64,000 nt of DNA from the NCBI RefSeq assembly GCF_050320075.1, contig NZ_CP190018.1. The stretch is one strand, 5' to 3'. Position 1 is the stretch's first letter; each line of letters starts with the position of its first letter. A program made the position numbers and the translations under genes. The notes under the pieces were generated by a model that was given only the letters and a program-made list of their open reading frames with translations, had not been told where the DNA came from and made no database searches. This document shows positions 2,922 to 63,204 of the stretch, piece after piece. This DNA comes from Escherichia coli (GTDB lineage Bacteria > Pseudomonadota > Gammaproteobacteria > Enterobacterales > Enterobacteriaceae).

Positions 2922-3763
2922 TTGAGAACCGTCCGTGGCTGACAATATTCAGCCATACCATGCTGATCCTCGGGATCGCGGTGATCCTCTTCCCGCTGTA
3001 CGTGGCGTTTGTCGCGGCGACGCTGGATAAACAGGCCGTCTACGCCGCGCCGATGACGCTAATCCCCGGCACACATCTGCTGGAAAACATCCACAACATC
3101 TGGGTGAACGGGGTAGGCACGAATAGTGCGCCTTTCTGGCGGATGTTGCTTAACAGCTTTGTGATGGCGTTCAGCATTACGCTCGGCAAAATTACCGTCT
3201 CGATGCTTTCGGCATTTGCCATTGTCTGGTTTCGTTTTCCGCTACGTAACCTCTTCTTCTGGATGATTTTTATCACTCTGATGTTGCCGGTTGAAGTGCG
3301 TATTTTCCCGACGGTGGAAGTGATCGCCAATCTGAAAATGCTCGACAGCTACGCCGGTTTAACGCTGCCGCTGATGGCCTCGGCGACCGCCACGTTTCTT
3401 TTCCGCCAGTTCTTTATGACGCTGCCGGATGAGCTGGTGGAAGCGGCGCGGATCGACGGTGCGTCACCAATGCGCTTCTTTTGCGACATCGTTTTTCCGC
3501 TCTCCAAAACTAATCTGGCGGCGCTGTTTGTGATCACCTTTATCTACGGCTGGAACCAGTATTTGTGGCCGTTGTTGATTATTACCGATGTGGATCTCGG
3601 CACCACCGTGGCAGGGATTAAAGGGATGATCGCCACTGGCGAAGGCACCACGGAATGGAACTCGGTGATGGCGGCGATGTTGTTAACGCTGATCCCTCCG
3701 GTGGTGATTGTTTTAGTGATGCAGCGTGCCTTTGTGCGCGGCCTGGTCGATAGTGAGAAATAA
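2918..3763 (+). CDS. ugpE: sn-glycerol-3-phosphate ABC transporter permease
   Basis: 281 aa multi-TM ORF; start overlaps ugpA stop (ATGA). Confidence 0.96.
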
Positions 3764-3764
3764 G

Positions 3765-4835
3765 ATGGCAGGACTGAAATTACAGGCAGTAACCAAAAGC
3801 TGGGATGGCAAAACCCAGGTCATTAAACCGCTGACCCTTGATGTGGCGGATGGCGAATTTATCGTGATGGTCGGGCCGTCTGGCTGCGGGAAATCGACGT
3901 TATTGCGAATGGTGGCCGGACTGGAGCGGGTAACGACGGGCGATATCTGGATCGACCGCAAGCGTGTCACCGAAATGGAGCCGAAAGATCGCGGGATTGC
4001 GATGGTGTTCCAGAACTACGCGCTCTATCCGCATATGAGCGTAGAGGAGAATATGGCGTGGGGGCTGAAAATTCGCGGCATGGGCAAGCAACAAATTGCC
4101 GAACGTGTTAAAGAAGCGGCGCGCATTCTGGAGCTGGACGGCCTGCTTAAGCGCCGCCCGCGTGAGTTATCTGGCGGTCAGCGTCAGCGTGTGGCGATGG
4201 GGCGTGCGATTGTGCGTGAGCCGGCAGTGTTCCTGTTTGATGAGCCGCTCTCTAACCTCGATGCCAAGTTGCGTGTGCAGATGCGTCTTGAACTGCAACA
4301 GCTGCACCGTCGCCTGAAAACGACTTCACTCTACGTTACCCACGATCAGGTTGAGGCGATGACGCTCGCCCAGCGAGTAATGGTGATGAACGGCGGCGTT
4401 GCCGAACAGATTGGCACGCCAGTTGAAGTGTACGAAAAGCCCGCCAGCCTGTTTGTGGCGAGTTTTATCGGCAGTCCGGCGATGAATCTGCTGGCAGGGC
4501 GTGTGAATAACGAAGGTACGCATTTCGAACTGGACGGCGGTATCGCGCTGCCGCTAAACGGTGGCTACCGTCAGTATGCTGGACGTAAAATGACTCTCGG
4601 CATTCGCCCGGAACATATTACGCTACGTTCGCAGGCTGAAGGTGGCGTGCCGCTGGTGATGGACACGCTGGAGATCCTCGGCGCAGATAACCTGGCGCAC
4701 GGACGCTGGGGCGAACAGAAGCTGGTGGTGCGACTGGCGCATCAGGAGCGCCCGACGGCAGGCAGCACGCTGTGGCTGCATCTGCCGGAAAATCAGCTGC
4801 ATCTTTTTGATGGTGAAACAGGACAACGAGTATGA
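3765..4835 (+). CDS. ugpC: sn-glycerol-3-phosphate ABC transporter ATP-binding protein
   Basis: 356 aa from ATG 3765 ([13 protein letters not shown]...); Walker [13 protein letters not shown] signature LSGGQRQR; ATG one nt after ugpE stop. Confidence 0.95.
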
Positions 4836-5575
4836 GTAACTGGCCTTATCCCCGCATCGTCGCCCATCGTGGCGGCGGTAAACTGGCCCCGGAGAACACC
4901 CTGGCAGCAATCGACGTCGGGGCAAAATACGGTCATAAGATGATCGAATTTGACGCGAAGTTATCGAAAGATGGCGAGATCTTCCTGCTCCATGACGACA
5001 ATCTTGAACGCACCAGCAACGGCTGGGGCGTCGCGGGCGATCTGAACTGGCAGGATTTACTGCGCGTGGATGCAGGCAGTTGGTACAGCAAAGCGTTTAA
5101 AGGTGAGCCGCTACCGTTGCTTTCGCAGGTGGCGGAACGCTGTCGCGAACACGGGATGATGGCGAATATCGAAATCAAACCCACCACTGGCACCGGGCCA
5201 TTAACGGGCAAAATGGTGGCGCTGGCGGCACGCGAACTGTGGGCCGATATGACGCCGCCGCTGCTGTCATCGTTTGAGATTGATGCTTTAGAAGCTGCAC
5301 AACAGGCTGCACCGGAACTGCCGCGCGGTTTGTTGTTGGATGAGTGGCGCGACGACTGGCGAGAACTGACCGCGCGACTGGGCTGCGTCTCTATTCATCT
5401 CAATCATAAGTTGCTTGATAAAGCGCGAGTGATGCAGTTGAAAGACGCCGGATTACGGATTCTGGTTTATACCGTCAATAAACCCCAGCGCGCGGCAGAG
5501 TTGCTGCGCTGGGGCGTGGATTGCATCTGCACCGATGCGATTGACGTGATTGGTCCGAACTTTACGGCCCAATAG
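4832..5575 (+). CDS. ugpQ: glycerophosphodiester phosphodiesterase
   Basis: 247 aa; start overlaps ugpC stop; length and sequence match UgpQ. Confidence 0.95.
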
Positions 5576-6121: not shown

Positions 6122-7864
6122 ATGATAAAACCGACGTTTTTACGCCGGGTAGCCATTGCTGCTCTGCTCTCAGGAAGTTGTTTTAGCGCCGCCGCCGCGC
6201 CTCCTCCGCCACCTGTTTCTTATGGCGTGGAGGAAGATGTCTTCCATCCGGTACGCGCGAAACAGGGGATGGTGGCGTCTGTAGATGCTACTGCCACTCA
6301 GGTGGGCGTGGATATCCTCAAGGAGGGCGGGAATGCCGTTGATGCTGCCGTGGCGGTGGGCTACGCGCTGGCGGTAACGCATCCGCAGGCGGGGAATCTG
6401 GGCGGCGGTGGTTTTATGCTGATCCGCTCGAAAAATGGCAATACCACCGCTATCGATTTCCGCGAAATGGCACCCGCCAAAGCGACCCGCGATATGTTCC
6501 TTGATGATCAGGGTAACCCGGACAGCAAAAAATCACTCACTTCGCATCTGGCCTCCGGTACGCCCGGTACGGTAGCAGGTTTCTCGCTGGCGTTGGATAA
6601 ATACGGCACCATGCCGTTGAACAAAGTGGTGCAACCGGCGTTTAAACTGGCACGCGATGGTTTTATCGTTAACGACGCGTTGGCTGACGATCTCAAAACC
6701 TACGGTAGCGAAGTGTTGCCGAATCACGAAAACAGCAAGGCTATCTTCTGGAAAGAGGGCGCGCCGCTGAAAAAGGGCGACAAGCTGGTGCAGGCGAACC
6801 TGGCAAAGAGCCTGGAGATGATTGCCGAAAACGGCCCGGACGAATTCTACAAAGGCACGATAGCGGAACAGATTGCCCAGGAGATGCAGAAAAACGGTGG
6901 CTTGATCACTAAAGAAGATTTAGCGGCGTATAAAGCGGTCGAACGTACACCGATTAGCGGCGATTATCGCGGGTATCAGGTTTACTCCATGCCACCGCCA
7001 TCTTCCGGCGGGATCCATATCGTACAAATCCTCAATATTCTGGAAAACTTCGATATGAAGAAATACGGCTTTGGCAGCGCCGACGCGATGCAAATCATGG
7101 CAGAAGCTGAGAAATATGCCTACGCCGACCGCTCGGAATATCTTGGCGACCCGGATTTTGTCAAAGTTCCGTGGCAGGCGCTGACCAATAAAGCCTATGC
7201 CAAATCTATTGCCGATCAAATCGATATCAATAAAGCGAAGCCATCCAGCGAAATTCGCCCCGGCAAGCTTGCGCCTTATGAGAGTAATCAAACTACCCAT
7301 TACTCAGTGGTGGATAAAGACGGCAACGCGGTAGCGGTGACCTATACGCTGAACACCACCTTCGGGACGGGCATTGTCGCGGGCGAGAGCGGTATTCTGC
7401 TTAATAACCAGATGGATGATTTCTCCGCCAAACCTGGCGTACCGAACGTTTACGGGCTGGTGGGTGGTGACGCCAACGCGGTCGGGCCGAATAAACGCCC
7501 GCTGTCGTCGATGTCCCCAACCATTGTGGTGAAAGACGGTAAAACCTGGTTAGTGACTGGTAGCCCAGGCGGTAGCCGGATCATCACTACCGTGCTGCAA
7601 ATGGTGGTGAACAGCATCGATTATGGTATGAATGTCGCCGAAGCGACCAATGCACCGCGTTTCCACCATCAGTGGTTGCCGGACGAGCTGCGTGTCGAAA
7701 AAGGGTTTAGCCCGGATACGCTCAAGCTGCTGGAAGCAAAAGGTCAGAAAGTGGCGCTGAAAGAGGCGATGGGTAGTACACAAAGCATTATGGTTGGGCC
7801 GGACGGCGAGTTGTACGGCGCATCCGATCCGCGCTCGGTGGATGATTTAACGGCGGGTTATTAA
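6122..7864 (+). CDS. ggt: gamma-glutamyltranspeptidase
   Basis: 580 aa from ATG 6122 (MIKPTFLRRVAIAALLSG...); signal peptide; conserved TTHYSVVD autoprocessing region. Confidence 0.95.
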   Translation: MIKPTFLRRVAIAALLSGSCFSAAAAPPPPPVSYGVEEDVFHPVRAKQGMVASVDATATQVGVDILKEGGNAVDAAVAVGYALAVTHPQAGNLGGGGFMLIRSKNGNTTAIDFREMAPAKATRDMFLDDQGNPDSKKSLTSHLASGTPGTVAGFSLALDKYGTMPLNKVVQPAFKLARDGFIVNDALADDLKTYGSEVLPNHENSKAIFWKEGAPLKKGDKLVQANLAKSLEMIAENGPDEFYKGTIAEQIAQEMQKNGGLITKEDLAAYKAVERTPISGDYRGYQVYSMPPPSSGGIHIVQILNILENFDMKKYGFGSADAMQIMAEAEKYAYADRSEYLGDPDFVKVPWQALTNKAYAKSIADQIDINKAKPSSEIRPGKLAPYESNQTTHYSVVDKDGNAVAVTYTLNTTFGTGIVAGESGILLNNQMDDFSAKPGVPNVYGLVGGDANAVGPNKRPLSSMSPTIVVKDGKTWLVTGSPGGSRIITTVLQMVVNSIDYGMNVAEATNAPRFHHQWLPDELRVEKGFSPDTLKLLEAKGQKVALKEAMGSTQSIMVGPDGELYGASDPRSVDDLTAGY

Positions 7865-7870
7865 GGTTAG

Positions 7871-7900
7871 CGGCCCTCTTCGTGGGAAGAGGGCCGTATT
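7871..7900 (+). terminator. probable rho-independent terminator of ggt
   Basis: Hairpin cggccctcttc-gtgg-gaagagggccg immediately after the ggt stop, followed by tatt. Confidence 0.5.
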
Positions 7901-7929
7901 GTCAGGGCAAGCCGGGTAATGACTCCAAC

Positions 7930-8433
7930 TTACTGATAGTGTTTTATGTTCAGATAATGCCCGATGACTTTGTCATGCAGCTCCACCGATTTTGAGAACG
8001 ACAGTGACTTCCGTCCCAGCCTTGCCAGATGTTGTCTCAGATTCAGGTTATGTCGCTCAATGCGCTGAGTGTAACGCTTGCTGATTACGTGCAGCTTTCC
8101 CTTCAGGCGGGATTCATACAGCGGCCAGCCATCCGTCATCCATACCACGACCTCAAAGGCCGACAGCAGGCTCAGAAGACGCTCCAGTGTGGCCAGAGTG
8201 CGTTCACCGAAGACGTGCGCCACAACCGTCCTCCGTATCCTGTCATACGCGTAAAACAGCCAGCGCTGACGTGATTTAGCACCGACGTAGCCCCACTGTT
8301 CGTCCATTTCAGCGCAGACAATCACATCACTGCCCGGCTGTATGCGCGAGGTTACCGACTGCGGCCTGAGTTTTTTAAGTGACGTAAAATCGTGTTGAGG
8401 CCAACGCCCATAATGCGGGCGGTTGCCCGGCAT
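7930..8433 (-). CDS. insB: IS1 InsB (transposase C-terminal part, made as InsAB' by frameshift)
   Basis: 167 aa ORF in the -1 frame overlapping the insA 3' end; matches IS1 InsB. Confidence 0.92.
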
Positions 8434-8627
8434 CCAACACCATTCATGGCCATATCAATGATTTTCTGGTGTGTACCGGGTTGAGAAGCGGTGTAAGTGA
8501 ACTGCAGTTGCCATGTTTTACGGCAGTGAGAGCAGAGATAGCGCTGATGTCCGGCAGTACTTTTACCGTTACGCACCACGCCTTCAGTAGCTGAGCAGGA
8601 GGGACAACTGATGGAGATGGAAGCCAC
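8352..8627 (-). CDS. insA: IS1 InsA
   Basis: 91 aa [43 protein letters not shown]...; zinc-finger/HTH protein of IS1. Confidence 0.92.
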
Positions 8628-8655
8628 GGGAGCACCTCAAAAACACCATCATACA

Positions 8656-9114
8656 CTAAATCAGTAAGTTGGCACCATTACCGGTATTTGCGATAAGATG
8701 TTGACAGAGGATAAATTCATAACTAACAGTTAATGTTTCTGTATCCAGTTGATTTTCAATGATCTGATGATGAATAGCCGATAAAAAAGCGCCTCTTAGT
8801 TGTATATAATAATACTTTCCCCATCTACCAAATCTATTTATTCGATAGAAGTCAAATTCCATAAATAATTGTTCATTATTGTTAATGGAATTAATAAATA
8901 ATGGAGTGCTTTTATCAATTAATTTACAAAATGTTATACCATGAAACTGTGAACCAAGCCCCGTATTAGTAATACTATTTAAGAATGAGAATGTAAATAT
9001 TTCATCCTCATGCCCGCTCTGCCAGCGATTACCTGTAGACTCAGAAGTCCCACAACCTGCGGAGATGCTTCCTTGTTGTTCTCCCGTTACTGTCAGGTAA
9101 ACAATATTACTCAT
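8656..9114 (-). pseudogene. yhhZ: Hcp-family (type VI secretion tube protein-like) gene truncated by IS1; the last 9 codons and the stop lie inside IS1
   Basis: 152 aa ORF MSNIVYLTVTGEQQGSISAGC...HEDEIFTFSFLNSITNTG...ITFCKLIDKSTPLF has Hcp-type motifs; the reading frame crosses the IS1 boundary at 8682 and stops at 8656; AT-rich. The yhhZ symbol is by position, from memory. Confidence 0.65.
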
Positions 9115-9349: not shown

Positions 9350-9838
9350 TTACTTCACCCGCGCCATATAATACGCATCGACATATTCACCATTACGTAA
9401 TGCGTACTTCTTGCCAGTCCCTTCAATCTCAAATCCAAATTTTTTATAGACTTTAATTGCTGGCGCGTTATCGATGAACACCGTTAGCTCAATACGATCT
9501 ACCCGCAACCAGTTGTCGCACATTTCAATCATCTCTCGCATCAGGGCGCTGGCGACGCCGCGATTCTTCCAACGGGAGTCGACACAAATACCAAAATCTG
9601 CAACATGACTGCGGCGTGGGCGCTGTTGCACGTCAATGGTGAGATGGCCCACGACGTCTCCATCAATACAGGCGACGAGTTGCTTGATGCCGGGACGATC
9701 GGCGAGTCGCTCCTGCCACATATGATCGGAAGGATGAGGCACCTGTAGCGTGTTGCAATACACCTCCGGCTGGGCGTGAATCTGCCTGATGGCCTCGTAA
9801 TCGCGCGTTTCAGCATGGCGTATCACTATCTCACTCAT
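9350..9838 (-). CDS. yhhY: GNAT-family N-acetyltransferase
   Basis: 162 aa from ATG at 9838 (MSEIVIRHAETRDYEAIRQIH...); GNAT motif region RGVASALMREMIE. Confidence 0.9.
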   Translation of the reverse strand: MSEIVIRHAETRDYEAIRQIHAQPEVYCNTLQVPHPSDHMWQERLADRPGIKQLVACIDGDVVGHLTIDVQQRPRRSHVADFGICVDSRWKNRGVASALMREMIEMCDNWLRVDRIELTVFIDNAPAIKVYKKFGFEIEGTGKKYALRNGEYVDAYYMARVK

Positions 9839-12251: not shown

Positions 12252-13247
12252 ATGAAAAAGAAAAGACCCGTACTTCAGGATGTGGCTGACCGTGTAGGCG
12301 TGACCAAAATGACGGTCAGCCGTTTTTTACGCAACCCGGAGCAGGTTTCCGTCGCTCTACGCGGCAAGATTGCCGCCGCTCTTGATGAACTGGGTTATAT
12401 TCCCAATCGCGCGCCCGATATCCTCTCTAATGCCACCAGCCGGGCGATTGGCGTCCTGTTACCTTCTCTCACCAACCAGGTTTTCGCGGAAGTATTACGC
12501 GGAATCGAAAGCGTCACCGACGCGCACGGTTATCAAACTATGCTGGCGCACTACGGTTATAAACCGGAAATGGAGCAAGAACGCCTCGAATCAATGCTCT
12601 CATGGAATATCGATGGACTGATCCTCACCGAACGTACCCACACGCCACGCACCTTAAAGATGATTGAAGTGGCGGGGATTCCGGTGGTGGAGTTGATGGA
12701 CAGCAAGTCGCCGTGCCTCGATATTGCCGTCGGTTTTGATAACTTTGAAGCGGCACGCCAGATGACCACCGCCATTATTGCTCGCGGGCATCGCCACATT
12801 GCCTATCTCGGCGCACGTCTCGACGAACGTACTATCATCAAACAGAAGGGATACGAACAGGCGATGCTGGATGCAGGCCTGGTGCCGTATAGCGTGATGG
12901 TTGAGCAATCTTCTTCTTACTCTTCCGGTATTGAACTGATTCGCCAGGCGAGGCGGGAATATCCGCAGCTGGATGGCGTGTTCTGTACTAATGATGACCT
13001 GGCGGTCGGCGCGGCGTTTGAATGCCAGCGTCTGGGGTTGAAAGTTCCTGACGATATGGCGATTGCCGGTTTCCATGGTCATGACATTGGTCAGGTGATG
13101 GAACCACGGTTGGCGAGCGTACTGACGCCGCGTGAGCGGATGGGCAGTATTGGCGCTGAACGCCTGCTGGCGCGTATTCGTGGCGAATCTGTGACACCGA
13201 AAATGTTAGATTTAGGTTTCACCTTGTCACCGGGCGGATCTATTTAA
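12252..13247 (+). CDS. gntR: gluconate operon repressor, LacI family
   Basis: 331 aa; N-terminal HTH LQDVADRVGVTKMTVSRFL; followed by gntK and gntU. Confidence 0.95.
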   Translation: MKKKRPVLQDVADRVGVTKMTVSRFLRNPEQVSVALRGKIAAALDELGYIPNRAPDILSNATSRAIGVLLPSLTNQVFAEVLRGIESVTDAHGYQTMLAHYGYKPEMEQERLESMLSWNIDGLILTERTHTPRTLKMIEVAGIPVVELMDSKSPCLDIAVGFDNFEAARQMTTAIIARGHRHIAYLGARLDERTIIKQKGYEQAMLDAGLVPYSVMVEQSSSYSSGIELIRQARREYPQLDGVFCTNDDLAVGAAFECQRLGLKVPDDMAIAGFHGHDIGQVMEPRLASVLTPRERMGSIGAERLLARIRGESVTPKMLDLGFTLSPGGSI

Positions 13248-13325
13248 GCCCACAAATTTGAAGTAGCTCACACTTATACACTTAAGGCACGGATGGATAT
13301 TGCTTCTGATATTGTCCGGCCGGAC

Positions 13326-13356
13326 AATGTTACCGATAACAGTTACCCGTAACATT
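13326..13356 (+). promoter_or_regulatory. tandem GntR operators in the gntK promoter
   Basis: aatgttaccgataacagttacccgtaacat contains two overlapping palindromes of the ATGTTACCxxTAACAT type about 30 bp upstream of the gntK start. Confidence 0.6.
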
Positions 13357-13385
13357 TTTATTTCTTGTATTGTGGGGGCACCACT

Positions 13386-13913
13386 TTGAGCACGACTAAC
13401 CATGATCACCACATTTACGTCTTGATGGGCGTATCGGGCAGCGGCAAATCTGCGGTCGCCAGTGAAGTGGCGCATCAACTTCATGCCGCGTTTCTTGATG
13501 GCGATTTCCTCCATCCAAGGCGCAATATCGAAAAAATGGCGTCTGGTGAACCGCTGAATGACGACGATCGCAAACCGTGGTTGCAGGCGCTGAACGACGC
13601 CGCGTTTGCTATGCAGCGCACCAATAAAGTGTCGCTGATCGTCTGTTCTGCACTGAAAAAACACTATCGCGACTTGCTGCGTGAAGGTAATCCGAATCTC
13701 TCGTTCATCTACCTGAAAGGCGATTTTGATGTGATTGAAAGCCGCCTGAAAGCGCGCAAAGGCCATTTCTTTAAAACCCAAATGTTGGTGACGCAGTTTG
13801 AAACGCTGCAGGAGCCGGGTGCGGACGAAACCGATGTACTGGTGGTGGATATCGATCAACCGCTGGAAGGTGTTGTGGCAAGCACCATTGAGGTTATTAA
13901 AAAAGGCAAATAA
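13386..13913 (+). CDS. gntK: gluconokinase
   Basis: 175 aa from TTG 13386 (STTNHDHHIYVLMGVSGSGKSAVA); P-loop GVSGSGKS. Confidence 0.92.
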   Translation: MSTTNHDHHIYVLMGVSGSGKSAVASEVAHQLHAAFLDGDFLHPRRNIEKMASGEPLNDDDRKPWLQALNDAAFAMQRTNKVSLIVCSALKKHYRDLLREGNPNLSFIYLKGDFDVIESRLKARKGHFFKTQMLVTQFETLQEPGADETDVLVVDIDQPLEGVVASTIEVIKKGK

Positions 13914-15396: not shown

Positions 15397-17493
15397 ATGG
15401 AAAAGCACGGAGCTGAATTGCTTTTACAGCGGATGTTAGGAAATACCACCGCTACTTTCAGGGAAGGGCAATGGGAAGCCATAGATGCAGTGGTTAATCA
15501 GCGGCGAAAACTGCTGGTTGTACAGCGCACCGGCTGGGGGAAAAGTGCCGTGTACTTCATCGCCAGTAAAATCTTCCGCGATCGCGGCGCTGGCCCGACA
15601 ATTATCATCTCTCCTTTGCTTGCCCTGATGCGTAACCAGGTTGCCGCCGCTGAACGGTTAGGTATTACGGCTGAAACGTTGAATTCTACAAACAGGGAAG
15701 AATGGCAGCGCATTAGCGATAAGTTGCTGCAAGGTGAGGTCGATTGCTTGCTGGTTTCCCCGGAACGTTTGGCAAACCAGGACTTTATCGAAACGGTTTT
15801 ATATCCTATAGCCGATCGTATTGGCTTGCTTGTGGTCGACGAGGCGCACTGCATCTCTGATTGGGGCCACGATTTTCGCCCGGATTACCGACGTATATTA
15901 GATATTTTGCGCCAACTGCCTGCGAATACCCCTGTTCTGGGTACAACCGCGACAGCGAATAACCGTGTTGTTGAGGATATCCGTCAGCAATTGGGTGACA
16001 TTGTGATTCAGCGTGGAACGCTGGCTCGCGAAAGTTTGGCGCTTGATGCCTTAGTCTTAGGAGAACAGTCATCCCGTCTGGCATGGTTAGCAACGGTTAT
16101 CCCTCAGTTTTCCAAATCGGGAATTGTTTATACCCTGACGACTCGCGATGCTGAACTTGTCGCCGAGTGGTTAAGGAAAAATGGTATCAGTGCATTTGCT
16201 TACTACAGCGGCGTGACTTGTGAAGGCGCGGAAGATTCTAATACTGCCAGGGAATATCTGGAGCAGGCACTGCTGGCAAATAAAATCAAAGTGCTGGTCG
16301 CGACGACGGCATTAGGTATGGGGTTTGATAAACCTGATTTAGGTTTCGTCATTCATTATCAGATGCCGGGGTCTATTGTCGGTTACTACCAACAGGTGGG
16401 GCGTGCCGGGCGTGCTATAGATTCCGCAGTTGGCATATTGCTTTGTGGTGGTGAAGACCGCGCTATTCATCAATTCTTCCGTGAAAGCGCCTTTCCTGCG
16501 GAGGCGCAAATTCATGAAATACTCAACGTACTTAGCGAGAATGACGGTCTTACCCTACGAGGCATTGAACAACGGACGAATCTTCGTTATGGGCAAATAG
16601 AAAAAGCACTGAAATTATTGGTAGCGGAAAATCCATCGCCTGTGGTGTATACCGAGAAATTATGGCGCAGAACTATCGTCAGTTTTTCTCCTGATCATGA
16701 ACGAATTAACCATTTGATGAATCAGAGAAAAAGTGAACTGGCAGACGTTGAAAGCTATATCACGACCAAGGAGTGCAAAATGCAATTTCTGCGCCGTGCA
16801 CTCGATGAGCCAAGTGCCGAACGTTGTGGTAAATGTAGCAGTTGTCTTCAGCATCCGTTATTGTCGCCCGACATTGATAGCGGCTTACTCCATGCGGCAA
16901 ATTTATTTATTAAACACGCTGACCTGCCGTTAAATCTCAATAAACAGGTGGCAGCTGGGGCTTTTACGCAATACGGATTTAAAGGGAACTTGCCTGCGGG
17001 TTTACAAGGATCTACGGGGCGAATCCTTTCTCGTTGGGGAGATTCCGGGTGGGGAAAGCAGGTAGCACAGGAGAAAAAAACGGGGCGCTTAAGTGATGAG
17101 CTGGTAGAAGCATGTGCGGAAATGGTTCGCCAACGCTGGAATCCGCATCCTGAACCAACCTGGGTATGCTGCGTTCCTTCATTAAGGCACCTCGACCTGG
17201 TTCCTGATTTTGCCCGGCGACTGGCGGCGAAACTTGGCTTACCTTTTATTGATGCCATTGAAAAAGTCGTGGACAATCCACCGCAGAAAATGCAGCAAAA
17301 CCGTTTTCACCAGTGTCAAAATCTCGACGGGGCGTTTGTGATTACCCCTCCTTTGATGCCAGGTCCGGCGTTGCTGGTTGACGATATCGTGGATTCTGCA
17401 TGGACGCTGACAGTTCTGACAGCACTGTTACGCCAGGCAGGTTGCCCGACGGTTTATCCTCTTGCCCTTGCTTCTACCTCGGTAAAAAATTGA
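15397..17493 (+). CDS. RecQ-family DEAH helicase with C-terminal CxxC and phosphoribosyltransferase-like domain (PsyrT/RqlH-like candidate toxin or effector)
   Basis: 698 aa; Walker A QRTGWGKSAV, DEAH box VVDEAHCISDWGHDFRPDYRR, helicase-C motif YQQVGRAGR, then CGKCSSC and a PRTase-type nucleotide loop LLVDDIVDSAWT near the C-terminus; SD gcaggag upstream of the ATG. Confidence 0.85.
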   Translation: MEKHGAELLLQRMLGNTTATFREGQWEAIDAVVNQRRKLLVVQRTGWGKSAVYFIASKIFRDRGAGPTIIISPLLALMRNQVAAAERLGITAETLNSTNREEWQRISDKLLQGEVDCLLVSPERLANQDFIETVLYPIADRIGLLVVDEAHCISDWGHDFRPDYRRILDILRQLPANTPVLGTTATANNRVVEDIRQQLGDIVIQRGTLARESLALDALVLGEQSSRLAWLATVIPQFSKSGIVYTLTTRDAELVAEWLRKNGISAFAYYSGVTCEGAEDSNTAREYLEQALLANKIKVLVATTALGMGFDKPDLGFVIHYQMPGSIVGYYQQVGRAGRAIDSAVGILLCGGEDRAIHQFFRESAFPAEAQIHEILNVLSENDGLTLRGIEQRTNLRYGQIEKALKLLVAENPSPVVYTEKLWRRTIVSFSPDHERINHLMNQRKSELADVESYITTKECKMQFLRRALDEPSAERCGKCSSCLQHPLLSPDIDSGLLHAANLFIKHADLPLNLNKQVAAGAFTQYGFKGNLPAGLQGSTGRILSRWGDSGWGKQVAQEKKTGRLSDELVEACAEMVRQRWNPHPEPTWVCCVPSLRHLDLVPDFARRLAAKLGLPFIDAIEKVVDNPPQKMQQNRFHQCQNLDGAFVITPPLMPGPALLVDDIVDSAWTLTVLTALLRQAGCPTVYPLALASTSVKN

Positions 17494-18695
17494 TGAATCT
17501 TTCAGCCAATGCACAAGCGACTCTCCTGCTAACCAGCGATTTTTCTCGCGCGGCGGCGAGTGAGTATAAACCTCTTAGTAATAGTGAATGGGGGAAGTTT
17601 GCATTATGGCTGAAGCACCAACGTATCAGTCCCGCCGATCTTCTGGTGCCGCAACCGCAAGAGAAACTTACAGGCTGGAGCGATCCGCGTATTTCTCAGG
17701 AGCGTATTCTTGGCTTGCTGGCGCGTGGTCATAGTCTGGCGTTGGCGGTAGATAAGTGGCAACGCGCCGGTTTATGGATCTTAACCCGCGGAGATGCCGA
17801 TTATCCCGTTCGCTTGAAAAACCGATTGCGAACGGATGCACCTCCCGTTTTATTTGGCTGCGGGAATAAAGCATTACTGCAAGCGGAAGGTATGGCGATT
17901 GTTGGCTCGCGAGATGCTCCGACTGCCGATTTGCGCTATACCCAACAACTGGCAGCGAAACTGGCCCAACAGGGGATTTGCGTTATCTCTGGTGGTGCGC
18001 GAGGTATTGATGAATGTGCAATAGCGTCGGCGCTGGAGGCCGGAGGAACTGCCGTTGGCGTATTAGCTGATAGCTTGTTAAAAACGAGCACGTTAGTGAA
18101 ATGGCGTGAAGGGCTTATAGCAGGCAACCTGGTGTTGATTTCACCGTTTTACCCAGAGGTACGTTTCACCGTCGGCAATGCGATGGCGCGGAATAAATAT
18201 ATTTATTGCCTTGCTGAAAGCGCAATGGTTGTACGTGCGGGAATGACCGGTGGAACGATAACCGGAGCGATGGAGGCGTTAAAACATCAGTGGCTGCCTG
18301 TTCTGGTTAAACCAAATCAGGATGTGCAATCAGCCAATTCACGATTAGTAGAAAATGGGGCGTCATGGAGTGCTGAACAGGCTGAGAATGTGACGATCAG
18401 ACTGCCAGACGTTCCTGGGCTGATGTATGACAGAGCACTCCGTAACGCTCAACCAGAATTGTTTTCGCTGCACGAAGATGACGCAAATTACGCAGTGATG
18501 CCCTCGCATACCCCTGTCGATTTTTATCAACTTTTTGTGGCGGAACTGGCGATCCTTGCAAAGGAATCGATAAGTATTGAAAGGCTGGCGTCTTGTACTG
18601 GTTTAACCATCGAACAAATTAGTATGTGGCTGAACCGCGCAGAAGAAGAGGGAAGGGTTATCCGATTGGGCGAAGGTCATTATCAGTTCAGGTAA
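17493..18695 (+). CDS. DprA/Smf-like Rossmann-fold protein (PsyrA/RqlI-like candidate antitoxin or partner)
   Basis: 400 aa from ATG 17493 (MNLSANAQATLLL...); DprA signature VISGGARGIDECAIASALEAGGTAVGVLADSL and NAMARNKYIYCLAESAMVV; the ATG overlaps the helicase TGA by one nt. Confidence 0.8.
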   Translation: MNLSANAQATLLLTSDFSRAAASEYKPLSNSEWGKFALWLKHQRISPADLLVPQPQEKLTGWSDPRISQERILGLLARGHSLALAVDKWQRAGLWILTRGDADYPVRLKNRLRTDAPPVLFGCGNKALLQAEGMAIVGSRDAPTADLRYTQQLAAKLAQQGICVISGGARGIDECAIASALEAGGTAVGVLADSLLKTSTLVKWREGLIAGNLVLISPFYPEVRFTVGNAMARNKYIYCLAESAMVVRAGMTGGTITGAMEALKHQWLPVLVKPNQDVQSANSRLVENGASWSAEQAENVTIRLPDVPGLMYDRALRNAQPELFSLHEDDANYAVMPSHTPVDFYQLFVAELAILAKESISIERLASCTGLTIEQISMWLNRAEEEGRVIRLGEGHYQFR

Positions 18696-30386: not shown

Positions 30387-31904
30387 ATGGAAAGAATAAT
30401 GCAAAACGGAAAATGGATTTTGACCTCGCTGGTAATGACTTTTTTTGGCATCCCCATACTGGCGCAATTTTTGGCAGCGGTTGTTGCCATGCTGGGGGCC
30501 GGGCTTGCCGCTATTCTTGAGTTTTGCAATTTACTCTTTACACCAACAATTTATCTTCTACTCAACGTCTTTATGCTGACGCTGGGCGCATTACTGCTAT
30601 TTTTCTCTGGGCGAGTGTGGGCGGGCGATAGCGCACCAGAAAACAGAGAAATAGCCGCCTGGCGACAATGTCTTTTTTTAGTTCCCGCTTTATTAACCCT
30701 GGTTGGCTGGATAATCACGCTACATCTGGCAGATTATCAATTTCGCCAGATGGGAGCCGGTTGGTTGGCAAACCTTATGCTTCCCTGGTTGGGCGTTTTT
30801 ACAGTCTCATTCGTCGGTGGTGAGTACTGGTGGATAGTCATTATTCCCGTTGGCGCGCATATCAGTTTTTCACTGGGATACGGCTGGCCGACCAGACACC
30901 CTTTAACCGGCACCTCCGGTCTACGTTGCCGTAATTTACTTCTGTTCATTCTTCTCTTACTGGGTATTGTCGCTGGTTATCAGGCTTATTTATATAAACA
31001 GCTTAATCCCGGCGTCGGTGTGCGTGAAAATATTGATACCTGGGCCTGGCGACCCGATAAACTTAATAATCAACTGACGCCACTGCGTGGTAAACCACAA
31101 ATTCAATTTACGCAAAACTGGCCGCGACTCGATGGCGCTACGGCGGCGTACCCCATTTATGCCTCTGCATTTTATGCATTAAGTGTAATACCAGAGGATT
31201 TTCACGTTTGGGATTATCTGGATAACTCTCGTACGCAAGAAGCATATAACAAAATCGTTAACGGTGATGCCGATATTATTTTCGTGGCGCAACCTTCCGA
31301 TGGGCAAAAAAAACGCGCTGAGAAATCGGGCGTCACTTTGCTGTACACGCCATTTGCCCGTGAAGCGTTTGTTTTCATCGTCAATGCGGATAATCCGGTT
31401 AATTCCCTGACTGAACAACAAGTGCGTGACATTTTTAGTGGCGCAATTACCAACTGGCGCACGGTTGGCGGTAACGATCAGGAGATCCAGACCTGGCAAC
31501 GCCCGGAAGACTCTGGCAGCCAGACAGTGATGCAATCGCAGGTCATGAAAAATGTCCGCATGATCTCGCCGCAGGAAACCGAAGTGGCAAGCATGATGGA
31601 GGGAATGATTAAAGTCGTTGCCGAATACCGTAATACAAACAACGCAATAGGCTACACCTTCCGCTATTACGCAACACAAATGAATGCCGATAAAAATATA
31701 AAACTGCTAGCGATTAACGGTATTGCACCGACTGCAGAAAATATTCGCAATGGCAAATATCCCTATGTCGTCGATGCATTTATGGTAACGCGGGACAATA
31801 TGACGTCAGAAACACAAAAACTGGTTGAATGGTTTTTAACGCCGCAGGGGCAGAGTCTGGTGGAAGATGTGGGCTATGTGCCGCTGTATCCAACAATGAA
31901 ATAA
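30387..31904 (+). CDS. membrane protein with N-terminal multi-TM domain fused to a periplasmic PstS-like (PBP-like_2) binding domain
   Basis: 505 aa; first ~190 aa hydrophobic; C-terminal domain has the PstS-type motif NPVNSLTEQQVRDIFSGAITNWRTVGG and QRPEDSGSQTVM; tataat -10 at 30364-30369; alternative start ATG 30399. Confidence 0.8.
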   Translation: MERIMQNGKWILTSLVMTFFGIPILAQFLAAVVAMLGAGLAAILEFCNLLFTPTIYLLLNVFMLTLGALLLFFSGRVWAGDSAPENREIAAWRQCLFLVPALLTLVGWIITLHLADYQFRQMGAGWLANLMLPWLGVFTVSFVGGEYWWIVIIPVGAHISFSLGYGWPTRHPLTGTSGLRCRNLLLFILLLLGIVAGYQAYLYKQLNPGVGVRENIDTWAWRPDKLNNQLTPLRGKPQIQFTQNWPRLDGATAAYPIYASAFYALSVIPEDFHVWDYLDNSRTQEAYNKIVNGDADIIFVAQPSDGQKKRAEKSGVTLLYTPFAREAFVFIVNADNPVNSLTEQQVRDIFSGAITNWRTVGGNDQEIQTWQRPEDSGSQTVMQSQVMKNVRMISPQETEVASMMEGMIKVVAEYRNTNNAIGYTFRYYATQMNADKNIKLLAINGIAPTAENIRNGKYPYVVDAFMVTRDNMTSETQKLVEWFLTPQGQSLVEDVGYVPLYPTMK

Positions 31905-31929
31905 CGCTCGAGAGAAAGGAATCAGCGCA

Positions 31930-32922
31930 ATGAATAAATTCACCTGTGTTTTACTATTAGGTACGGCGCTACTGGCGGGATGTGTCGACCGGGAAGGGTA
32001 CTATAACAGCGTCAGGGAAGAAGACAGCCATGGACTGACGTCTCTGCGGGGGCAACCTGAATTACGTTACAACGATGATTGGTCAAGATGGCCGAGAGTG
32101 TACGGCGCTACAGCCTTATACCCGCTGTATGCCTCCGCGTATTATGAATTAGTACCCGAGCCAAAAGATAAGGATCGAACCTCGCTGGCCTGGCAGGCGT
32201 ATGGTTTGCAACAAACCCGAACAGCTGAAGCCTACGATAGTCTGATTAAGGGTACCGCGACGGTTATTTTTGTTGCACAACCGTCGGAAGGACAGAAAAA
32301 ACGTGCAGAAGAAGCAGGTGTTAAACTCAAATATACCGCTTTCGCCCGCGAAGCCTTTGTCTTTATCGTTGATATCAAAAACCCGGTTAATTCACTTAGC
32401 GAACAGCAGGTCAAAGACATTTTTAGCGGTAAAGTGAGTCGCTGGAATAAAGTGGGCGGCGGTGACGAAGGTATAAAAATCTGGCAGCGGCCAGAAGATT
32501 CTGGAAGCCAAACGGTTATGAAGGGACTGGTTATGCAAGATACTCCAATGCTGCCAGCCAAAAAATCCACTGTTATCGATCTTATGGGCGGTTTAATTAC
32601 CGAAGTCGCCGACTACCAAAATACACCATCTTCTATTGGATACACCTTCCACTATTACGTCACACGTATGAATGACAATATGCTCAAAATGCGCAAACAG
32701 ATCAAACTGCTGGCTATAAATGGCGTTGCACCTACAGAGGAAAATATCCGTAACGGCACTTATCCGTACATAATTCATGCTTATATGGTGACGCACGAAA
32801 ACCCTACGCTGGAAACGCAGAAATTCGTCGACTGGTTTTTAAGCCCGCAGGGACAGCAATTGGTAGAGGATGTGGGCTATGTGCCGATTTATGACGCATC
32901 ATCCGAATCATCAGGACAATAA
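31930..32922 (+). CDS. lipoprotein with PstS-like (PBP-like_2) binding domain, paralog of the C-terminal domain of the upstream gene
   Basis: 330 aa; lipobox LLAGC; shares IFVAQPSxGQKKRAE..GV.L.YT.FAREAFVFIV..NPVNSL.EQQV.DIFSG...W..VGG...I..WQRPEDSGSQTVM with the upstream ORF; SD aaagga. Confidence 0.8.
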   Translation: MNKFTCVLLLGTALLAGCVDREGYYNSVREEDSHGLTSLRGQPELRYNDDWSRWPRVYGATALYPLYASAYYELVPEPKDKDRTSLAWQAYGLQQTRTAEAYDSLIKGTATVIFVAQPSEGQKKRAEEAGVKLKYTAFAREAFVFIVDIKNPVNSLSEQQVKDIFSGKVSRWNKVGGGDEGIKIWQRPEDSGSQTVMKGLVMQDTPMLPAKKSTVIDLMGGLITEVADYQNTPSSIGYTFHYYVTRMNDNMLKMRKQIKLLAINGVAPTEENIRNGTYPYIIHAYMVTHENPTLETQKFVDWFLSPQGQQLVEDVGYVPIYDASSESSGQ

Positions 32923-32924
32923 AG

Positions 32925-33525
32925 ATGAATAAAATCAGACTTTATATTCCTCCGTTAATTCTTGGTTTTGTTATTGTGCCGTTGTTGGTGTGGCCGACGG
33001 TGGTTGCGCTGGCTGCTTGTGTTATCACGCTGAGTTTTATGGGAGAAATACTGTTCTCTATCCCGCTCATGTTCAGGCGTATTTCACTTCTGGAATTCCA
33101 ACTTGGGTTATTGGCTGAATATGCACTTTTTTTTTCTGTGCCATGTGTTGCGTTGGTTGGCAATTTTCTTGCAGAGCTCAATCTGAACTGAAAAGCAGAC
33201 TCCATTGTTGGTTGGTATTTGCACCAGTTTATTTCTGGTTGCTCCTGTGGAATATCATTTTCTATGTCGCGCCAGCGCAAATTGCTTTGCTGGAAAATAT
33301 GCGCAATTTCTTTCTGACCATTGTCTGGTTACCCCTGAATTTTTTCAATTTGGGTCTCAGCCGTGGACTGACTTTATCGGTCCGATAAGCGCCCAGCTTG
33401 GTTTTGCATTGGGATATTATTGCCAGTGGCGTAGCAAAAATAGAAGTCAGAGGAAGAAGTGGGGCGAGTGGGTAATGTGTCTGAGTTTTGTTACGTTGGG
33501 TATGATTGCGTGGGCTTTGCGGTAA
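32925..33525 (+). pseudogene. frameshifted membrane-domain gene, paralog of the N-terminal TM domain of the 30387 ORF
   Basis: Three successive overlapping ORFs in frames 0, 2 and 1 (32925-33191, 33143-33388, 33205-33525) each align to consecutive parts of the TM domain of the 505-aa protein (e.g. NMRNFFLTIVWLPLNFFNLG vs QMGAGWLANLMLPWLGVFTVS; PISAQLGFALGY vs PVGAHISFSLGY). Confidence 0.55.
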
Positions 33526-37411: not shown

Positions 37412-38991
37412 TCCTGCAAGGCTTCCCACGTCAGACCAAAACGCGCCAGGTATTTGCGTAGCCGATCTGCGTCGTTGACGCTGGCTTTGCCCTGGCGCGA
37501 AACGTCAAAAAGCTGGCGTCCGGCAGCAGAAAGCGACTTTGCCTGGCGGCAGATAGCGATAACGTGTTCCAGTTGCATACGGTCGAAGAGATCGATGTTT
37601 TCTGCCTCTGCGCCCAGCAGTTGTGTAAGCGCGGAGGGACGGCTCTCCTGCCAGTTATAGCGCAGACGGTTTATCTCATCTTCAACCACGTCCAGAGTGA
37701 TGCGTCCGCTAGTGGCAAAGGTGGCCATCCGCGTGACGCTGGCAGAAAGTTCGCGAAAGTTACCGCGCCATGTTGCCTGGGGAGATGTCGCAAAGGCCAG
37801 CCAGGCGCGCCGCGCTTCGGTGTTAAAACGCACGCTGTCACCAGTGAGTGAGGCGTGGCGCTCCACTTCATAATCCAGGTTCGGTTCAATATCTTCCTGG
37901 CGCTGGAGTAGACCCGGCAGGGTGAAGGTCCAGAGATTGATCCGCGCGTACAGATCTTCGCGGAATTTGCCTTCGGCAACCAGCTGACGCAAATCGCGCA
38001 CCGTTCCGGCGATAAGCTGAAAGTCGCTACTCACCTGGCGATCGCTGCCAAACGGATAAAAGGTTTTCTCTTCAATGGCTTTCAGCAGCATTGCCTGTTC
38101 GTCTGCGCCCAATTCGCCAATCTCATCAAGAAATAACATCCCGCCGTTGGCGCTGCGTAATAATCCTTCCCGCGACTCCCGCGCCCCGGTAAACGCGCCT
38201 TTCACATGACCAAACAGCGTCGACATGGCGGTATCGCCACGCAGGGTGGCGCAGTTCATTTCCACAAACGCGCCGCTAAACTGATGCCGCGCCTGTTTCA
38301 ATTCAAAGATGCGTCGCGCCAGAAATGACTTACCCGCCCCGGTCGGGCCGTTAAGCAGGATCGGTGCGCGGGATTTGATCGCCACTTTTTCGATCTGCTC
38401 AATCATGCGGTTGAAGTGTGGGTTACGCGTGGCGATGCCTGATTTGAGGAAATCGAGCGTTTGTTGGCGTTCCTCGGCAAAGCGGCTGGCGATAGCGTTA
38501 TAACGGCTTAAATCGAGATCGATAATCGTCACTTCACCTGCGCCGCGCGGTTGTTCTTTTTTGCGCGGTGGTGAAGATTGTATCAACCGGGCGGGCAGGT
38601 AACGCGCTTCTGCCAGTAGAAACCAGCAAATCTGCGCGACGTGGGTGCCGGTGGTGATGTGAATTAAATAATCTTCATTTTCTGGCTGGAACGCGTAACC
38701 ACGGGCGAAATCATGCAGGCAGGCGTAAACCTCTTCGAAATCCCACGGGTTATGCAGTTCTATCTCAACGCCCACCACTTCTGTTTCTGGCGAAACGCTG
38801 GCGATATCGCGTTTAAGCGTTTCGAATAGCGAGCGCGAGCGGGCGTCGTGCAATAATTCCAGCCGATCGATAACTAACGATTCTTGCTGGCATAGACAGA
38901 GTGTCGGACGCCATTTTGACCAGCGCTGACTGCCGCGCCCGGCATAATCCAGCACCGTTCCGACAAAACCAAAAGCCACTGTTTTACGCAT
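37393..38991 (-). CDS. rtcR: sigma-54-dependent transcriptional activator of rtcBA
   Basis: 532 aa; AAA+ sigma-54 interaction domain (GPTGAGKS, GAFTGA). Confidence 0.95.
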   Translation of the reverse strand: MRKTVAFGFVGTVLDYAGRGSQRWSKWRPTLCLCQQESLVIDRLELLHDARSRSLFETLKRDIASVSPETEVVGVEIELHNPWDFEEVYACLHDFARGYAFQPENEDYLIHITTGTHVAQICWFLLAEARYLPARLIQSSPPRKKEQPRGAGEVTIIDLDLSRYNAIASRFAEERQQTLDFLKSGIATRNPHFNRMIEQIEKVAIKSRAPILLNGPTGAGKSFLARRIFELKQARHQFSGAFVEMNCATLRGDTAMSTLFGHVKGAFTGARESREGLLRSANGGMLFLDEIGELGADEQAMLLKAIEEKTFYPFGSDRQVSSDFQLIAGTVRDLRQLVAEGKFREDLYARINLWTFTLPGLLQRQEDIEPNLDYEVERHASLTGDSVRFNTEARRAWLAFATSPQATWRGNFRELSASVTRMATFATSGRITLDVVEDEINRLRYNWQESRPSALTQLLGAEAENIDLFDRMQLEHVIAICRQAKSLSAAGRQLFDVSRQGKASVNDADRLRKYLARFGLTWEALQDQHSSS

Positions 38992-39125
38992 CTTAGATAT
39001 CCTTATAAAAGACGATATTTCATTATCGGTAAATTGGCTTTGCGGGAAATCTCCGTTTACGGACGTAAAGGTATAATTTTTTTAAAAACAATGAATTAAA
39101 AAATTAAGCTGCTTATTTAATTTTC

Positions 39126-39141
39126 TGGTACGACGGTTGCA
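39126..39141 (+). promoter_or_regulatory. sigma-54 (-24/-12) promoter of rtcBA
   Basis: tGGtacgacggttGCa: GG-N10-GC spacing with TGGTAC-N5-TTGCA, 37 bp upstream of the rtcB ATG and downstream of divergent rtcR. Confidence 0.65.
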
Positions 39142-39177
39142 ATTATCAGGACATACCAACGAAAAGAGAAAAACAAA

Positions 39178-40404
39178 ATGAATTACGAATTACTGACCAC
39201 TGAAAATGCCCCGGTAAAAATGTGGACCAAAGGCGTGCCGGTAGAGGCCGATGCGCGTCAGCAACTTATTAATACGGCGAAGATGCCGTTTATTTTCAAA
39301 CATATTGCGGTAATGCCTGATGTACACCTGGGTAAAGGTTCCACCATTGGTAGCGTGATCCCAACCAAAGGGGCGATTATTCCGGCGGCGGTGGGCGTGG
39401 ATATCGGTTGTGGAATGAACGCGCTGCGTACCGCGTTAACGGCGGCAGACCTGCCTGAAAACCTGGCGGAGCTGCGTCAGGCGATTGAAACAGCCGTGCC
39501 GCACGGACGTACTACCGGACGTTGTAAACGTGATAAAGGCGCATGGGAAAATCCGCCTGTTAACGTCGATGCGAAATGGGCTGAGCTGGAAGCCGGTTAT
39601 CAGTGGTTAACGCAAAAATATCCCCGTTTCCTGAATACCAATAACTATAAACACCTGGGAACGCTGGGAACGGGTAACCACTTTATTGAAATCTGCCTTG
39701 ATGAGTCGGACCAGGTGTGGATTATGCTGCACTCCGGTTCACGCGGAATTGGTAACGCCATCGGGACTTACTTTATCGATCTGGCGCAAAAAGAGATGCA
39801 GGACCAACTTGAGACGTTGCCGTCGCGTGATCTGGCGTACTTTATGGAAGGTACGGAATACTTTGATGATTACCTGAAAGCCGTGGCCTGGGCGCAGCTT
39901 TTTGCCAGCCTTAACCGCGATGCGATGATGGAAAACGTGGTAACGGCGTTGCAGAGCGTTACGCAGAAAACGGTAAGACAGCCACAAACGCTGGCGATGG
40001 AAGAGATCAACTGTCATCACAACTATGTGCAAAAAGAACAGCACTTTGGTGAAGAGATCTACGTGACGCGTAAAGGCGCGGTGTCTGCGCGTGCGGGTCA
40101 ATATGGAATTATTCCAGGGTCGATGGGAGCGAAAAGCTTTATCGTCCGTGGGCTGGGAAATGAAGAATCGTTCTGTTCGTGCAGCCACGGTGCCGGGCGG
40201 GTAATGAGCCGTACCAAAGCGAAAAAACTGTTCAGCGTGGAAGATCAAATTCGTGCCACCGCGCATGTGGAATGCCGTAAAGATGCCGAAGTGATCGACG
40301 AAATCCCGATGGCGTATAAAGATATTGATGCGGTGATGGCGGCACAAAGCGATCTGGTGGAAGTTATCTATACCCTGCGTCAGGTGGTGTGCGTAAAAGG
40401 ATAA
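39178..40404 (+). CDS. rtcB: RNA-splicing ligase RtcB
   Basis: 408 aa; RtcB metal-binding His/Cys motifs (HSGSRG, CHHNY). Confidence 0.95.
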   Translation: MNYELLTTENAPVKMWTKGVPVEADARQQLINTAKMPFIFKHIAVMPDVHLGKGSTIGSVIPTKGAIIPAAVGVDIGCGMNALRTALTAADLPENLAELRQAIETAVPHGRTTGRCKRDKGAWENPPVNVDAKWAELEAGYQWLTQKYPRFLNTNNYKHLGTLGTGNHFIEICLDESDQVWIMLHSGSRGIGNAIGTYFIDLAQKEMQDQLETLPSRDLAYFMEGTEYFDDYLKAVAWAQLFASLNRDAMMENVVTALQSVTQKTVRQPQTLAMEEINCHHNYVQKEQHFGEEIYVTRKGAVSARAGQYGIIPGSMGAKSFIVRGLGNEESFCSCSHGAGRVMSRTKAKKLFSVEDQIRATAHVECRKDAEVIDEIPMAYKDIDAVMAAQSDLVEVIYTLRQVVCVKG

Positions 40405-60807: not shown

Positions 60808-62876
<2,069 letters not shown>

Positions 62877-62907
62877 ATAAAACGGGAGGCGAAGGTGCCT
62901 CCTGTTT

Positions 62908-63204
62908 TTAGATTGTTTTCAATTGATTGATAATGAAAGGATTCGCTTGCAAAAGCAGGAGCAATTTTCGGGGTGCTCCGGTAGGTTGACGGCGTTTGGT
63001 TTCCCAGCTTTTGACCAGGTCATAACTTACCCCTACGGCGACAGCAAAATCTTGCTGACGTAAACCCGTTGCTTCACGGATCGCTTTTACATCGATTTCG
63101 CTAAAAGTATGGACGTGCTCTGGTTCAGGCGCTTCTTCACCCTTTTCGATGCGTACCATTTCTTCTGCGCTGGCAAGAAGATCAGCAAATAATTCGTCTT
63201 TCAT
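62908..63204 (-). CDS. XRE-family HTH antitoxin (HigA-like)
   Basis: 98 aa; HTH region IREATGLRQQDFAVAVGVSYDLVKSWETKRRQPTG; lies 58 bp downstream of the toxin-like ORF on the same strand. Confidence 0.75.
   Translation of the reverse strand: MKDELFADLLASAEEMVRIEKGEEAPEPEHVHTFSEIDVKAIREATGLRQQDFAVAVGVSYDLVKSWETKRRQPTGAPRKLLLLLQANPFIINQLKTI

Follow-up and report, generated by a model that had tools for sequence, protein, structure and literature searches.

An IS1 copy without a target-site duplication marks a 1,959-bp loss from the ggt–yhhY islet of Escherichia coli

Gene order and junctions at the locus

The window, by which we mean the whole 64-kb stretch of E. coli DNA analysed here, carries the genes ugpQ, yhhA, ggt (plus strand), IS1, a truncated tssD/yhhZ (minus strand), yhhY (minus strand) and yhhX, in that order. 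The features between ggt and yhhY, with these two genes themselves, are as follows.

6122–7864, plus strand: ggt (gamma-glutamyltransferase), intact, the left neighbour; from the open reading frame and the RefSeq annotation of the identical YZLc1-3 sequence
7871–7896, no strand: perfect 11-bp hairpin (7871–7881 / 7886–7896) between the convergent ggt and yrhB, retained
7902–7914, minus strand: remnant of the 3′ end of yrhB, 13 nt (C GGC TTG CCC TGA), from comparison with the intact yrhB of strain 631
7906–7914, no strand: GGCAAGCCG, a 9-bp IS1 target present once here and twice, as a duplication, around the simple insertion in strain SCU-112
7915–8682, minus strand: IS1, complete, 768 bp; in RefSeq an IS1 family transposase with programmed frameshift, WP_223216367.1
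7915–7937, no strand: IRR, the insB-distal terminal inverted repeat of IS1, from an inverted-repeat search
7930–8433, minus strand: insB′ frame, an open reading frame of 167 aa, from the list of open reading frames
8352–8627, minus strand: insA, 91 aa, from the same list
8370–8378, minus strand: TTAAAAAAC, the motif for the −1 frameshift that yields the InsAB′ transposase, at position 305 counted from IRL
8656–8682, minus strand: IS1-encoded tail of eight codons (GNGANLLI) and a stop on the truncated tssD, the stop lying within IRL at 8656
8660–8682, no strand: IRL, the insA-proximal terminal inverted repeat of IS1, which holds the stop codon of the truncated tssD frame
8683–9114, minus strand: tssD/yhhZ remnant, 144 native codons of 392, Hcp domain only; an open reading frame, a pseudogene in RefSeq
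9350–9838, minus strand: yhhY (N-acetyltransferase), intact, the right neighbour; from the open reading frame and the RefSeq annotation of the identical YZLc1-3 sequence

The IS1 copy starts 50 bp downstream of the ggt stop codon (7862–7864), the distance given in a preliminary description of this sequence, and 18 bp beyond the end of the hairpin. The same description had the element abutting the ggt terminator. A hairpin is indeed there, but a terminator scan did not call it, no T-run is present, and the junction actually falls inside yrhB, within its last codons. The hairpin is a putative bidirectional terminator that may serve both ggt and yrhB.

The 9-mers on either side of the element, GGCAAGCCG (7906–7914) and GGTATTTGC (8683–8691), do not repeat one another, and a search around the element for a flanking direct repeat of 8 nt or more, at any offset, found none. 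The earlier observation that the 8–9 bp direct repeat is missing was thus correct, and the window IS1 lacks the 9-bp target-site duplication by which a simple insertion is recognised. This duplication is a trait of the insertion event and not of the element, and its absence marks a secondary deletion.

The IS1 copy and the truncated tssD gene

The element is complete and lies exactly where the preliminary description placed it. It is assigned to the IS1 family by its length, its inverted repeats (IRR and IRL are complementary at 20 of 23 positions, or 87%), its insA and insB′ frames with an A6C site between them, a motif whose role in IS1 frameshifting has been described (PMC12428005), and its similarity to reference copies. 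It is 93.2% identical to IS1A/E of K-12 over 768 bp with zero gaps, differs at 52 of 768 positions from the K-12 copy in yrhA (IS1E), and matches the yrhA IS1 of strain U1 throughout (768/768, 100%). The two other genomes found to carry this allele (see below) each contain some 18–26 matches to IS1.

The Hcp-family gene has been cut, as first described, after 144 native codons and not the roughly 143 originally counted. Over this native part the predicted protein does not differ from that of relatives; a single private SNP there, at 8944, is synonymous. Membership of the Hcp family is supported by a profile search, in which residues 1–146 of the remnant match positions 1–160 of the 167 in TIGR03344 (2.3e-34). 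What is left counts as a pseudogene remnant, not as an effector. IS1 is in tandem with tssD, with 28 nt between the end of the stump and insA, and transcription from the tssD promoter could plausibly read through into the element.

The missing interval

Among 5,426 complete E. coli genomes searched, the allele with both junctions was found in only two, YZLc1-3 from chicken faeces in China (NZ_CP123240.1) and Ec-U3 from human urine in Burkina Faso (NZ_CM192149.1), each 100% identical to the window over 49.9 kb, both junctions included. Near-identical relatives as a whole differ from the window by 0–6 SNPs across 47–50 kb. The clonal group comprises at least 58 further genomes with about 3 mismatches in a 24.9-kb query, tied in similarity with U1. 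Three members of the clone, 631, LH85-a and 144, were fetched and examined for the islet. They have no IS1 at the locus, lie 4–6 SNPs from the window over about 47 kb, and carry an intact islet in the order ggt–yrhB–yrhD′–yrhA (164 aa)–tssD (392 aa)–yhhY. In the 47-kb SNP table, four SNPs are private to the window lineage: 8944A, 9292A, 29722T and 33733T.

Mapped onto the IS1-free islet of strain 631 (locus L011), the window is without exactly 1,959 bp, L011 8001–9959, which correspond to 346000–347958 of NZ_CP040263.1 in strain 631. Both bounds are at complete IS1 ends and nothing else is missing. The loss takes tssD codons 145–392, the whole of yrhA, yrhD′, and yrhB except for its 13-nt remnant. 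The interval is absent from elsewhere within the 64-kb window, and is found once, chromosomally, in 3,797 of the 5,426 genomes. The comparison with IS1-free relatives thus bears out the earlier statement that the C-terminal extension of the Hcp gene and the downstream cognate genes are lost, and the locus holds neither a 9-bp duplication nor an intact Hcp gene.

One feature expected of an adjacent deletion is present: the IS is intact and the loss begins exactly at an IS1 terminus. With 1,959 bp missing between the IS1 ends, the original proposal of an adjacent deletion or an inter-IS1 recombination, as opposed to a simple insertion, fits the locus well, and it is close to certain that an IS1-associated deletion of some kind produced it. 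Slippage or illegitimate recombination that did not involve the IS ends was also considered; it is argued against by the microhomology at the deletion end points, which amounts to 1 nt on the right, where it leaves a 1-nt ambiguity, and none on the left. IS1 prefers AT-rich DNA, and the low G+C content of the islet (33.5%, against 51–54% in the flanks) is consistent with this preference.

The lost proteins

In relatives of the strain, full-length TssD/YhhZ matches TIGR03344 at residues 1–147 and PF05638 at residues 26–139, and its Hcp domain matches Hcp chains in the PDB at 5e-12 to 7e-10. The C-terminal region has an HNH-like motif, VHHKLSLDDGGTNDFENLVLIENEPYH, and its profile matches are weak (HNH at 0.013, residues 322–343; Cas8f-HNH at 0.05, residues 315–351). 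In the literature YhhZ is an ‘evolved Hcp’ whose HNH domain is degenerate (PMC2907695), and it is assigned to group 32 of the His-Me fingers (PMC5714182). Hcp-ET1, a related Hcp–HNH fusion, acts as a DNase delivered by the T6SS and has a cognate immunity protein (PMC6730261). The yrhA product of the relatives belongs to the YrhA family by profile match (NF038335). Models are lacking in PADLOC for TssD/YhhZ, YrhA and YrhB, and in NCBIfam for YrhB and YrhD. In the window the HNH/His-Me finger toxin domain is absent from tssD, which ends at codon 144, and yrhA, the putative immunity gene next downstream, is wholly deleted.

IS1 alleles across the islet

Every IS1 copy recovered at the islet was mapped onto the IS1-free reference. 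All nine simple insertions, from which nothing is missing, have perfect 9-bp duplications. They lie in yrhA (U1 and K-12), in yrhB (MS 21-1), at the 3′ end of yrhB (SCU-112) and in tssD (ES2, SW071611 and 2018-11-3CC), and two further direct copies occupy yrhA and tssD in WEM25. All eight alleles without a duplication (the window type, EC291, ET846, the BY63/ETEC1730 type, 730V1, HZ13, YPE10 and XJW9B277) lack 1.2–2.7 kb of the islet, starting exactly at an IS1 end. The association is perfect, and a missing duplication in this islet signals a secondary deletion. Such a split, nine of nine against eight of eight, means that the lack of a duplication in the window is not a matter of chance decay.

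The seven other alleles of the second class resemble the window in having a complete IS1 and no duplication, but differ from it in IS1 isoform, orientation, genetic background and right-hand end point, and they are independent events. Their right end points lie inside yhhY, upstream of yhhY or in yrhA. The BY63/ETEC1730 type is a widespread allele in which the toxin gene is kept and yrhA is lost.

A recurrent IS1 target beside ggt

The junction nucleotide that follows GGCAAGCCG (L011 8000) is common to the window type, EC291, HZ13 and SCU-112. The last three lineages differ from the window in flanking SNPs, IS1 isoform and/or orientation. EC291 has an IS1A in the window's orientation, with its right end inside yhhY and one flank deleted. 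HZ13 has an IS1B that points the other way and ends on the right just past the yhhY stop codon, so that yhhY is intact; again one flank is deleted. In SCU-112 the element is again an IS1B of opposite orientation, here a simple insertion that duplicates GGCAAGCCG. The duplication in SCU-112, together with the use of the same nucleotide in HZ13 and EC291, identifies GGCAAGCCG as a true insertion target, hit independently at least four times.

Of the ten ggt-side junctions mapped, this one nucleotide accounts for four, and five others lie within the next 50 bp. The chance of four in ten on a single nucleotide is about 2e-6 if junctions are uniform over the roughly 550 bp detectable by the queries, and about 5e-4 if they are restricted to a 60-bp range. 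The site sits at the boundary between G+C-rich DNA and the AT-rich islet. It is quite probable, then, that GGCAAGCCG is a nucleotide-precise, orientation-independent hot spot for IS1, used independently in at least four lineages, and that along with other IS1 insertions, in yrhB, yrhA and tssD, it drives a recurrent and convergent erosion, throughout the species, of an orphan Hcp–HNH toxin/immunity islet. If so, the BY63/ETEC1730 allele would imply either that YrhA is dispensable or that the HNH domain is not toxic to its own cell. The hot spot and the repeated, convergent erosion of the islet are the only mildly new point here, and the site could be a natural substrate for the study of target choice by IS1. 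A hot spot would draw intramolecular and intermolecular transposition alike, and so does not by itself discriminate between the possible routes to the window allele.

How the allele may have arisen

On balance, the locus seems likely to have arisen by insertion of IS1 at GGCAAGCCG, followed by a single IS1 adjacent deletion into tssD, although our confidence in this history is limited. IS1 would first have entered GGCAAGCCG, 50 bp past the ggt stop codon, creating a 9-bp duplication, and the insertion-only intermediate would have had the junctions GGCAAGCCG–IS1 and IS1–GGCAAGCCGAAGG. The IRL of the same copy would then have undergone intramolecular replicative transposition into tssD codon 144/145. 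The intervening DNA and the second copy of GGCAAGCCG would have been lost as a non-replicating circle, whilst IS1 would have stayed in place, joined at its exact terminus to the new target in tssD. The predicted product has both IS1 ends intact, no duplication and an Hcp-only stump, with the YrhA partner, yrhD′ and yrhB lost. We infer both the order of these events and their mediation by transposase from the sequences compared.

This history needs two events in the window lineage. IS1 transposition is mainly replicative (PMC12428005), and every IS copy that lacked a duplication in evolving E. coli was traced to an insertion with a later adjacent deletion (PMC11708052). No intermediate of the same lineage, with this isoform at GGCAAGCCG, a duplication and an intact islet, is present among the 5,426 complete genomes; the SCU-112 insertion, which has its duplication at the same nucleotide, belongs to another lineage and has another isoform and orientation.

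The same DNA could have been lost, along with one IS1 copy, by RecA-dependent homologous recombination between two directly oriented copies that shared an isoform and had inserted independently at GGCAAGCCG and at tssD codon 144/145, leaving a survivor with hybrid flanks. This is a minority possibility, though one of some substance, since its predicted product is indistinguishable from the observed sequence and missing duplications are known to result from recombination between IS copies (PMC11708052). Suitable substrates exist, for WEM25 holds two directly repeated IS1 copies in the islet, in yrhA and tssD; simple insertions of IS1 in tssD are found in at least four other lineages, and there are about 18–26 IS1 matches per genome. 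However, recombination calls for three events where insertion and adjacent deletion call for two, no two-copy intermediate was seen in the window lineage, and among the 5,426 genomes IS1 occupies the codon-144 site of tssD in only the two carriers of the deletion. As between recombination of two IS1 copies and adjacent deletion, the evidence leans towards insertion with one adjacent deletion.

An insertion in yrhA like that of U1, with the duplication GATTATTAA, offers a different starting point. Two successive adjacent deletions, one in which IRR removes 1,047 bp leftwards to GGCAAGCCG and one in which IRL removes 920 bp rightwards into tssD, would turn it into the window allele. U1 belongs to the same clone, at 6 SNPs in 47 kb, and its IS1 is identical (768/768), in the same orientation and situated between the deletion end points. 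Even so, we consider two deletions a less likely history than recombination. Three events are needed unless U1 is a sister, and the SNPs over 47 kb (four private to the window lineage, two to U1 and none shared and derived) give a star-like tree. The U1-type junction occurs in U1 only among the 5,426 genomes, many members of the clone tie with U1 in similarity, and the three examined are without IS1 at the locus. U1 cannot be shown to be a direct, ancestor-like sister, having no derived SNP in common with the window and being no more similar to it than are IS1-free members of the clone. Since the yrhA insertion is unique to U1 and no derived SNP is shared, an intermediate in yrhA is not required. 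Recombination and two deletions would each yield exactly the final sequence seen.

Capture of IS1 in a single, transposase-independent step, at the repair of a spontaneous 1,959-bp deletion or double-strand break, would also give no duplication. Capture at breaks has been proposed for some IS5 and IS481 events (Ngan et al. 2024, PMC11708052), a study that documents new deletions with an IS copy lacking a duplication at their centre. For the window this is very improbable. All 14 of the E. coli B cases in that work were ascribed to insertion followed by adjacent deletion, and the left junction of the window is an exact IS1 target, with a duplication in SCU-112, which speaks for target choice by transposase and not for a random break. 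Lastly, repeats are a classic source of mis-joins and IS1 has about 20 copies per genome, but a collapse or mis-join of reads at IS1 is scarcely credible when two independent complete assemblies from different continents share the junctions and 49.9 kb of identical flank, and when analogous deletions occur in seven other lineages.

Implications of the loss

All of the parts of this allele are known, namely IS1, IS-mediated deletion and YhhZ/YrhA, and the allele is already a pseudogene in RefSeq; it is an ordinary, textbook IS1 scar of a deletion, in an islet already known to vary. In this lineage a putative nuclease toxin has gone along with its partner. The double loss should be neutral for the cell, with consequences only when it competes against kin delivering the toxin. 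The allele can mark the lineage of a sub-clone present in poultry in China and in human urine in Burkina Faso. It is also a clean example of how an absent target duplication reliably signals a hidden deletion, and it adds a data point on the recurrent IS1 target beside ggt, by way of which many E. coli lineages have lost an orphan Hcp–nuclease toxin and its partner.

Comparison with known systems

One close counterpart is IS1E in yrhA of K-12 MG1655. The K-12 order given in the preliminary description was right (with yrhD included, it is tssD(yhhZ)–yrhA–IS1–yrhD–yrhB–ggt), as was the remark that it differs from that of the window. As in the window, the K-12 element is an IS1 in the ggt–yhhY islet, in the same orientation and in tandem with yhhZ–yrhA. 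In contrast to the window, IS1E is a simple insertion at another site, with the duplication TTTAATGTC and nothing deleted, whereas the corresponding site in yrhA is gone from the window. Read-through from upstream raises the transposition of K-12 IS1E (PMC12428005).

The deletions recorded during long-term evolution of E. coli B are like that of the window in that the IS ends are exact, there is no duplication and the loss proceeds from an IS terminus (PMC11708052). Those cases differ in that they involve IS150 and were followed through time as a two-step process, whereas the history of the window is reconstructed from comparative genomes.

With respect to the effectors of the Hcp-ET1/YhhZ type, the window gene is the orthologue of yhhZ. 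In its full-length form this gene encodes an N-terminal Hcp domain and a C-terminal HNH/His-Me finger region and is followed by yrhA. The window keeps only the Hcp part (144 aa) of this arrangement, the toxin domain and yrhA having been removed by the deletion.

Recurrent use of the islet by IS1

The IS1 copy beside ggt abuts a sequence that this element has used repeatedly.
window 7906-7914 (7992-8000 in L011, the IS1-free locus of strain 631): 9-mer GGCAAGCCG, last codons of yrhB; also present in the comparison loci L004, L022 and L023
Among the mapped IS1 junctions of the AT-rich ggt-yhhY islet, the identical nucleotide at GGCAAGCCG has been used in four independent lineages, in both orientations, and five additional junctions fall within the next 50 bp. 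One of the four hits, in strain SCU-112, is a simple insertion at the yrhB 3' end, with GGCAAGCCG duplicated.

IS1 has also entered the islet elsewhere, as seen in strain WEM25 (locus L014).
L014 831-1598 and 2282-3050: pair of IS1 copies in direct orientation, located in yrhA and tssD
Each copy is surrounded by its own 9-bp duplication, and one of the two (769 bp) carries a frameshift. Between two such copies, IS1-IS1 recombination could readily take place.

Deletion and its consequences for tssD and yrhA

A further IS1-bounded deletion allele of the islet is found in strains BY63 and ETEC1730.
L018 (BY63) 3067-5024, also L019 (ETEC1730): deletion allele removing yrhB, yrhD and yrhA, of which 15 nt of yrhA are left
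The 392-aa Hcp-HNH gene tssD is intact in this allele, the match geometry of which is common to 17 records, two of them (BY63 and ETEC1730) inspected. Judged from these sequences, many strains of this type would retain a putative toxin without its presumed immunity gene. The retention of tssD with loss of yrhA casts doubt on one of two assumptions: that YhhZ is toxic, or that YrhA confers immunity.

In the window lineage (YZLc1-3 and Ec-U3), two of the four private SNPs in 47 kb lie no more than 610 bp from the IS1 end, whereas only about 0.05 would be expected in this stretch.
window 8944: tssD remnant, F57 TTC>TTT, synonymous
window 9292: tssD-yhhY intergenic region
A loosening of constraint once tssD had become a pseudogene could account for this excess, as could chance.

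Other features

Strain 631 also differs from the window at rtcR, where clustered differences and a gap of about 280 bp (L011 ~38670-39956, corresponding to window ~38495-38800) accompany annotation as a shorter RtcR-family protein; this difference has no connection with the IS1 deletion at ggt. Three gene groups were noted at other positions.
window ~62850-63520 (12979-13651 in comparison locus L021): NadS-family gene and RelE/ParE-family type II toxin gene, between envZ and pckA
window 30396-33525, + strand: two PstS-family genes for phosphate-binding proteins, both full-length, and a hypothetical gene with a frameshift, between glgP and glpD
window 15397-18695, + strand: RecQ-like helicase gene and overlapping DprA-like gene, between gntU and yhgN
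The first is a small strain-variable toxin-antitoxin-like insert. Gene calls for the second come from RefSeq, as annotated on YZLc1-3, whose sequence is identical here; the K-12 interval presumably holds a remnant pseudogene only. The third occupies a position at which K-12 is not known to have such a pair. Because its members match the PADLOC models for PsyrT (E=0, 1064 bits) and PsyrA (5e-200), it is identified as a PsyrTA (RqlHI) toxin-antitoxin anti-phage defence pair.
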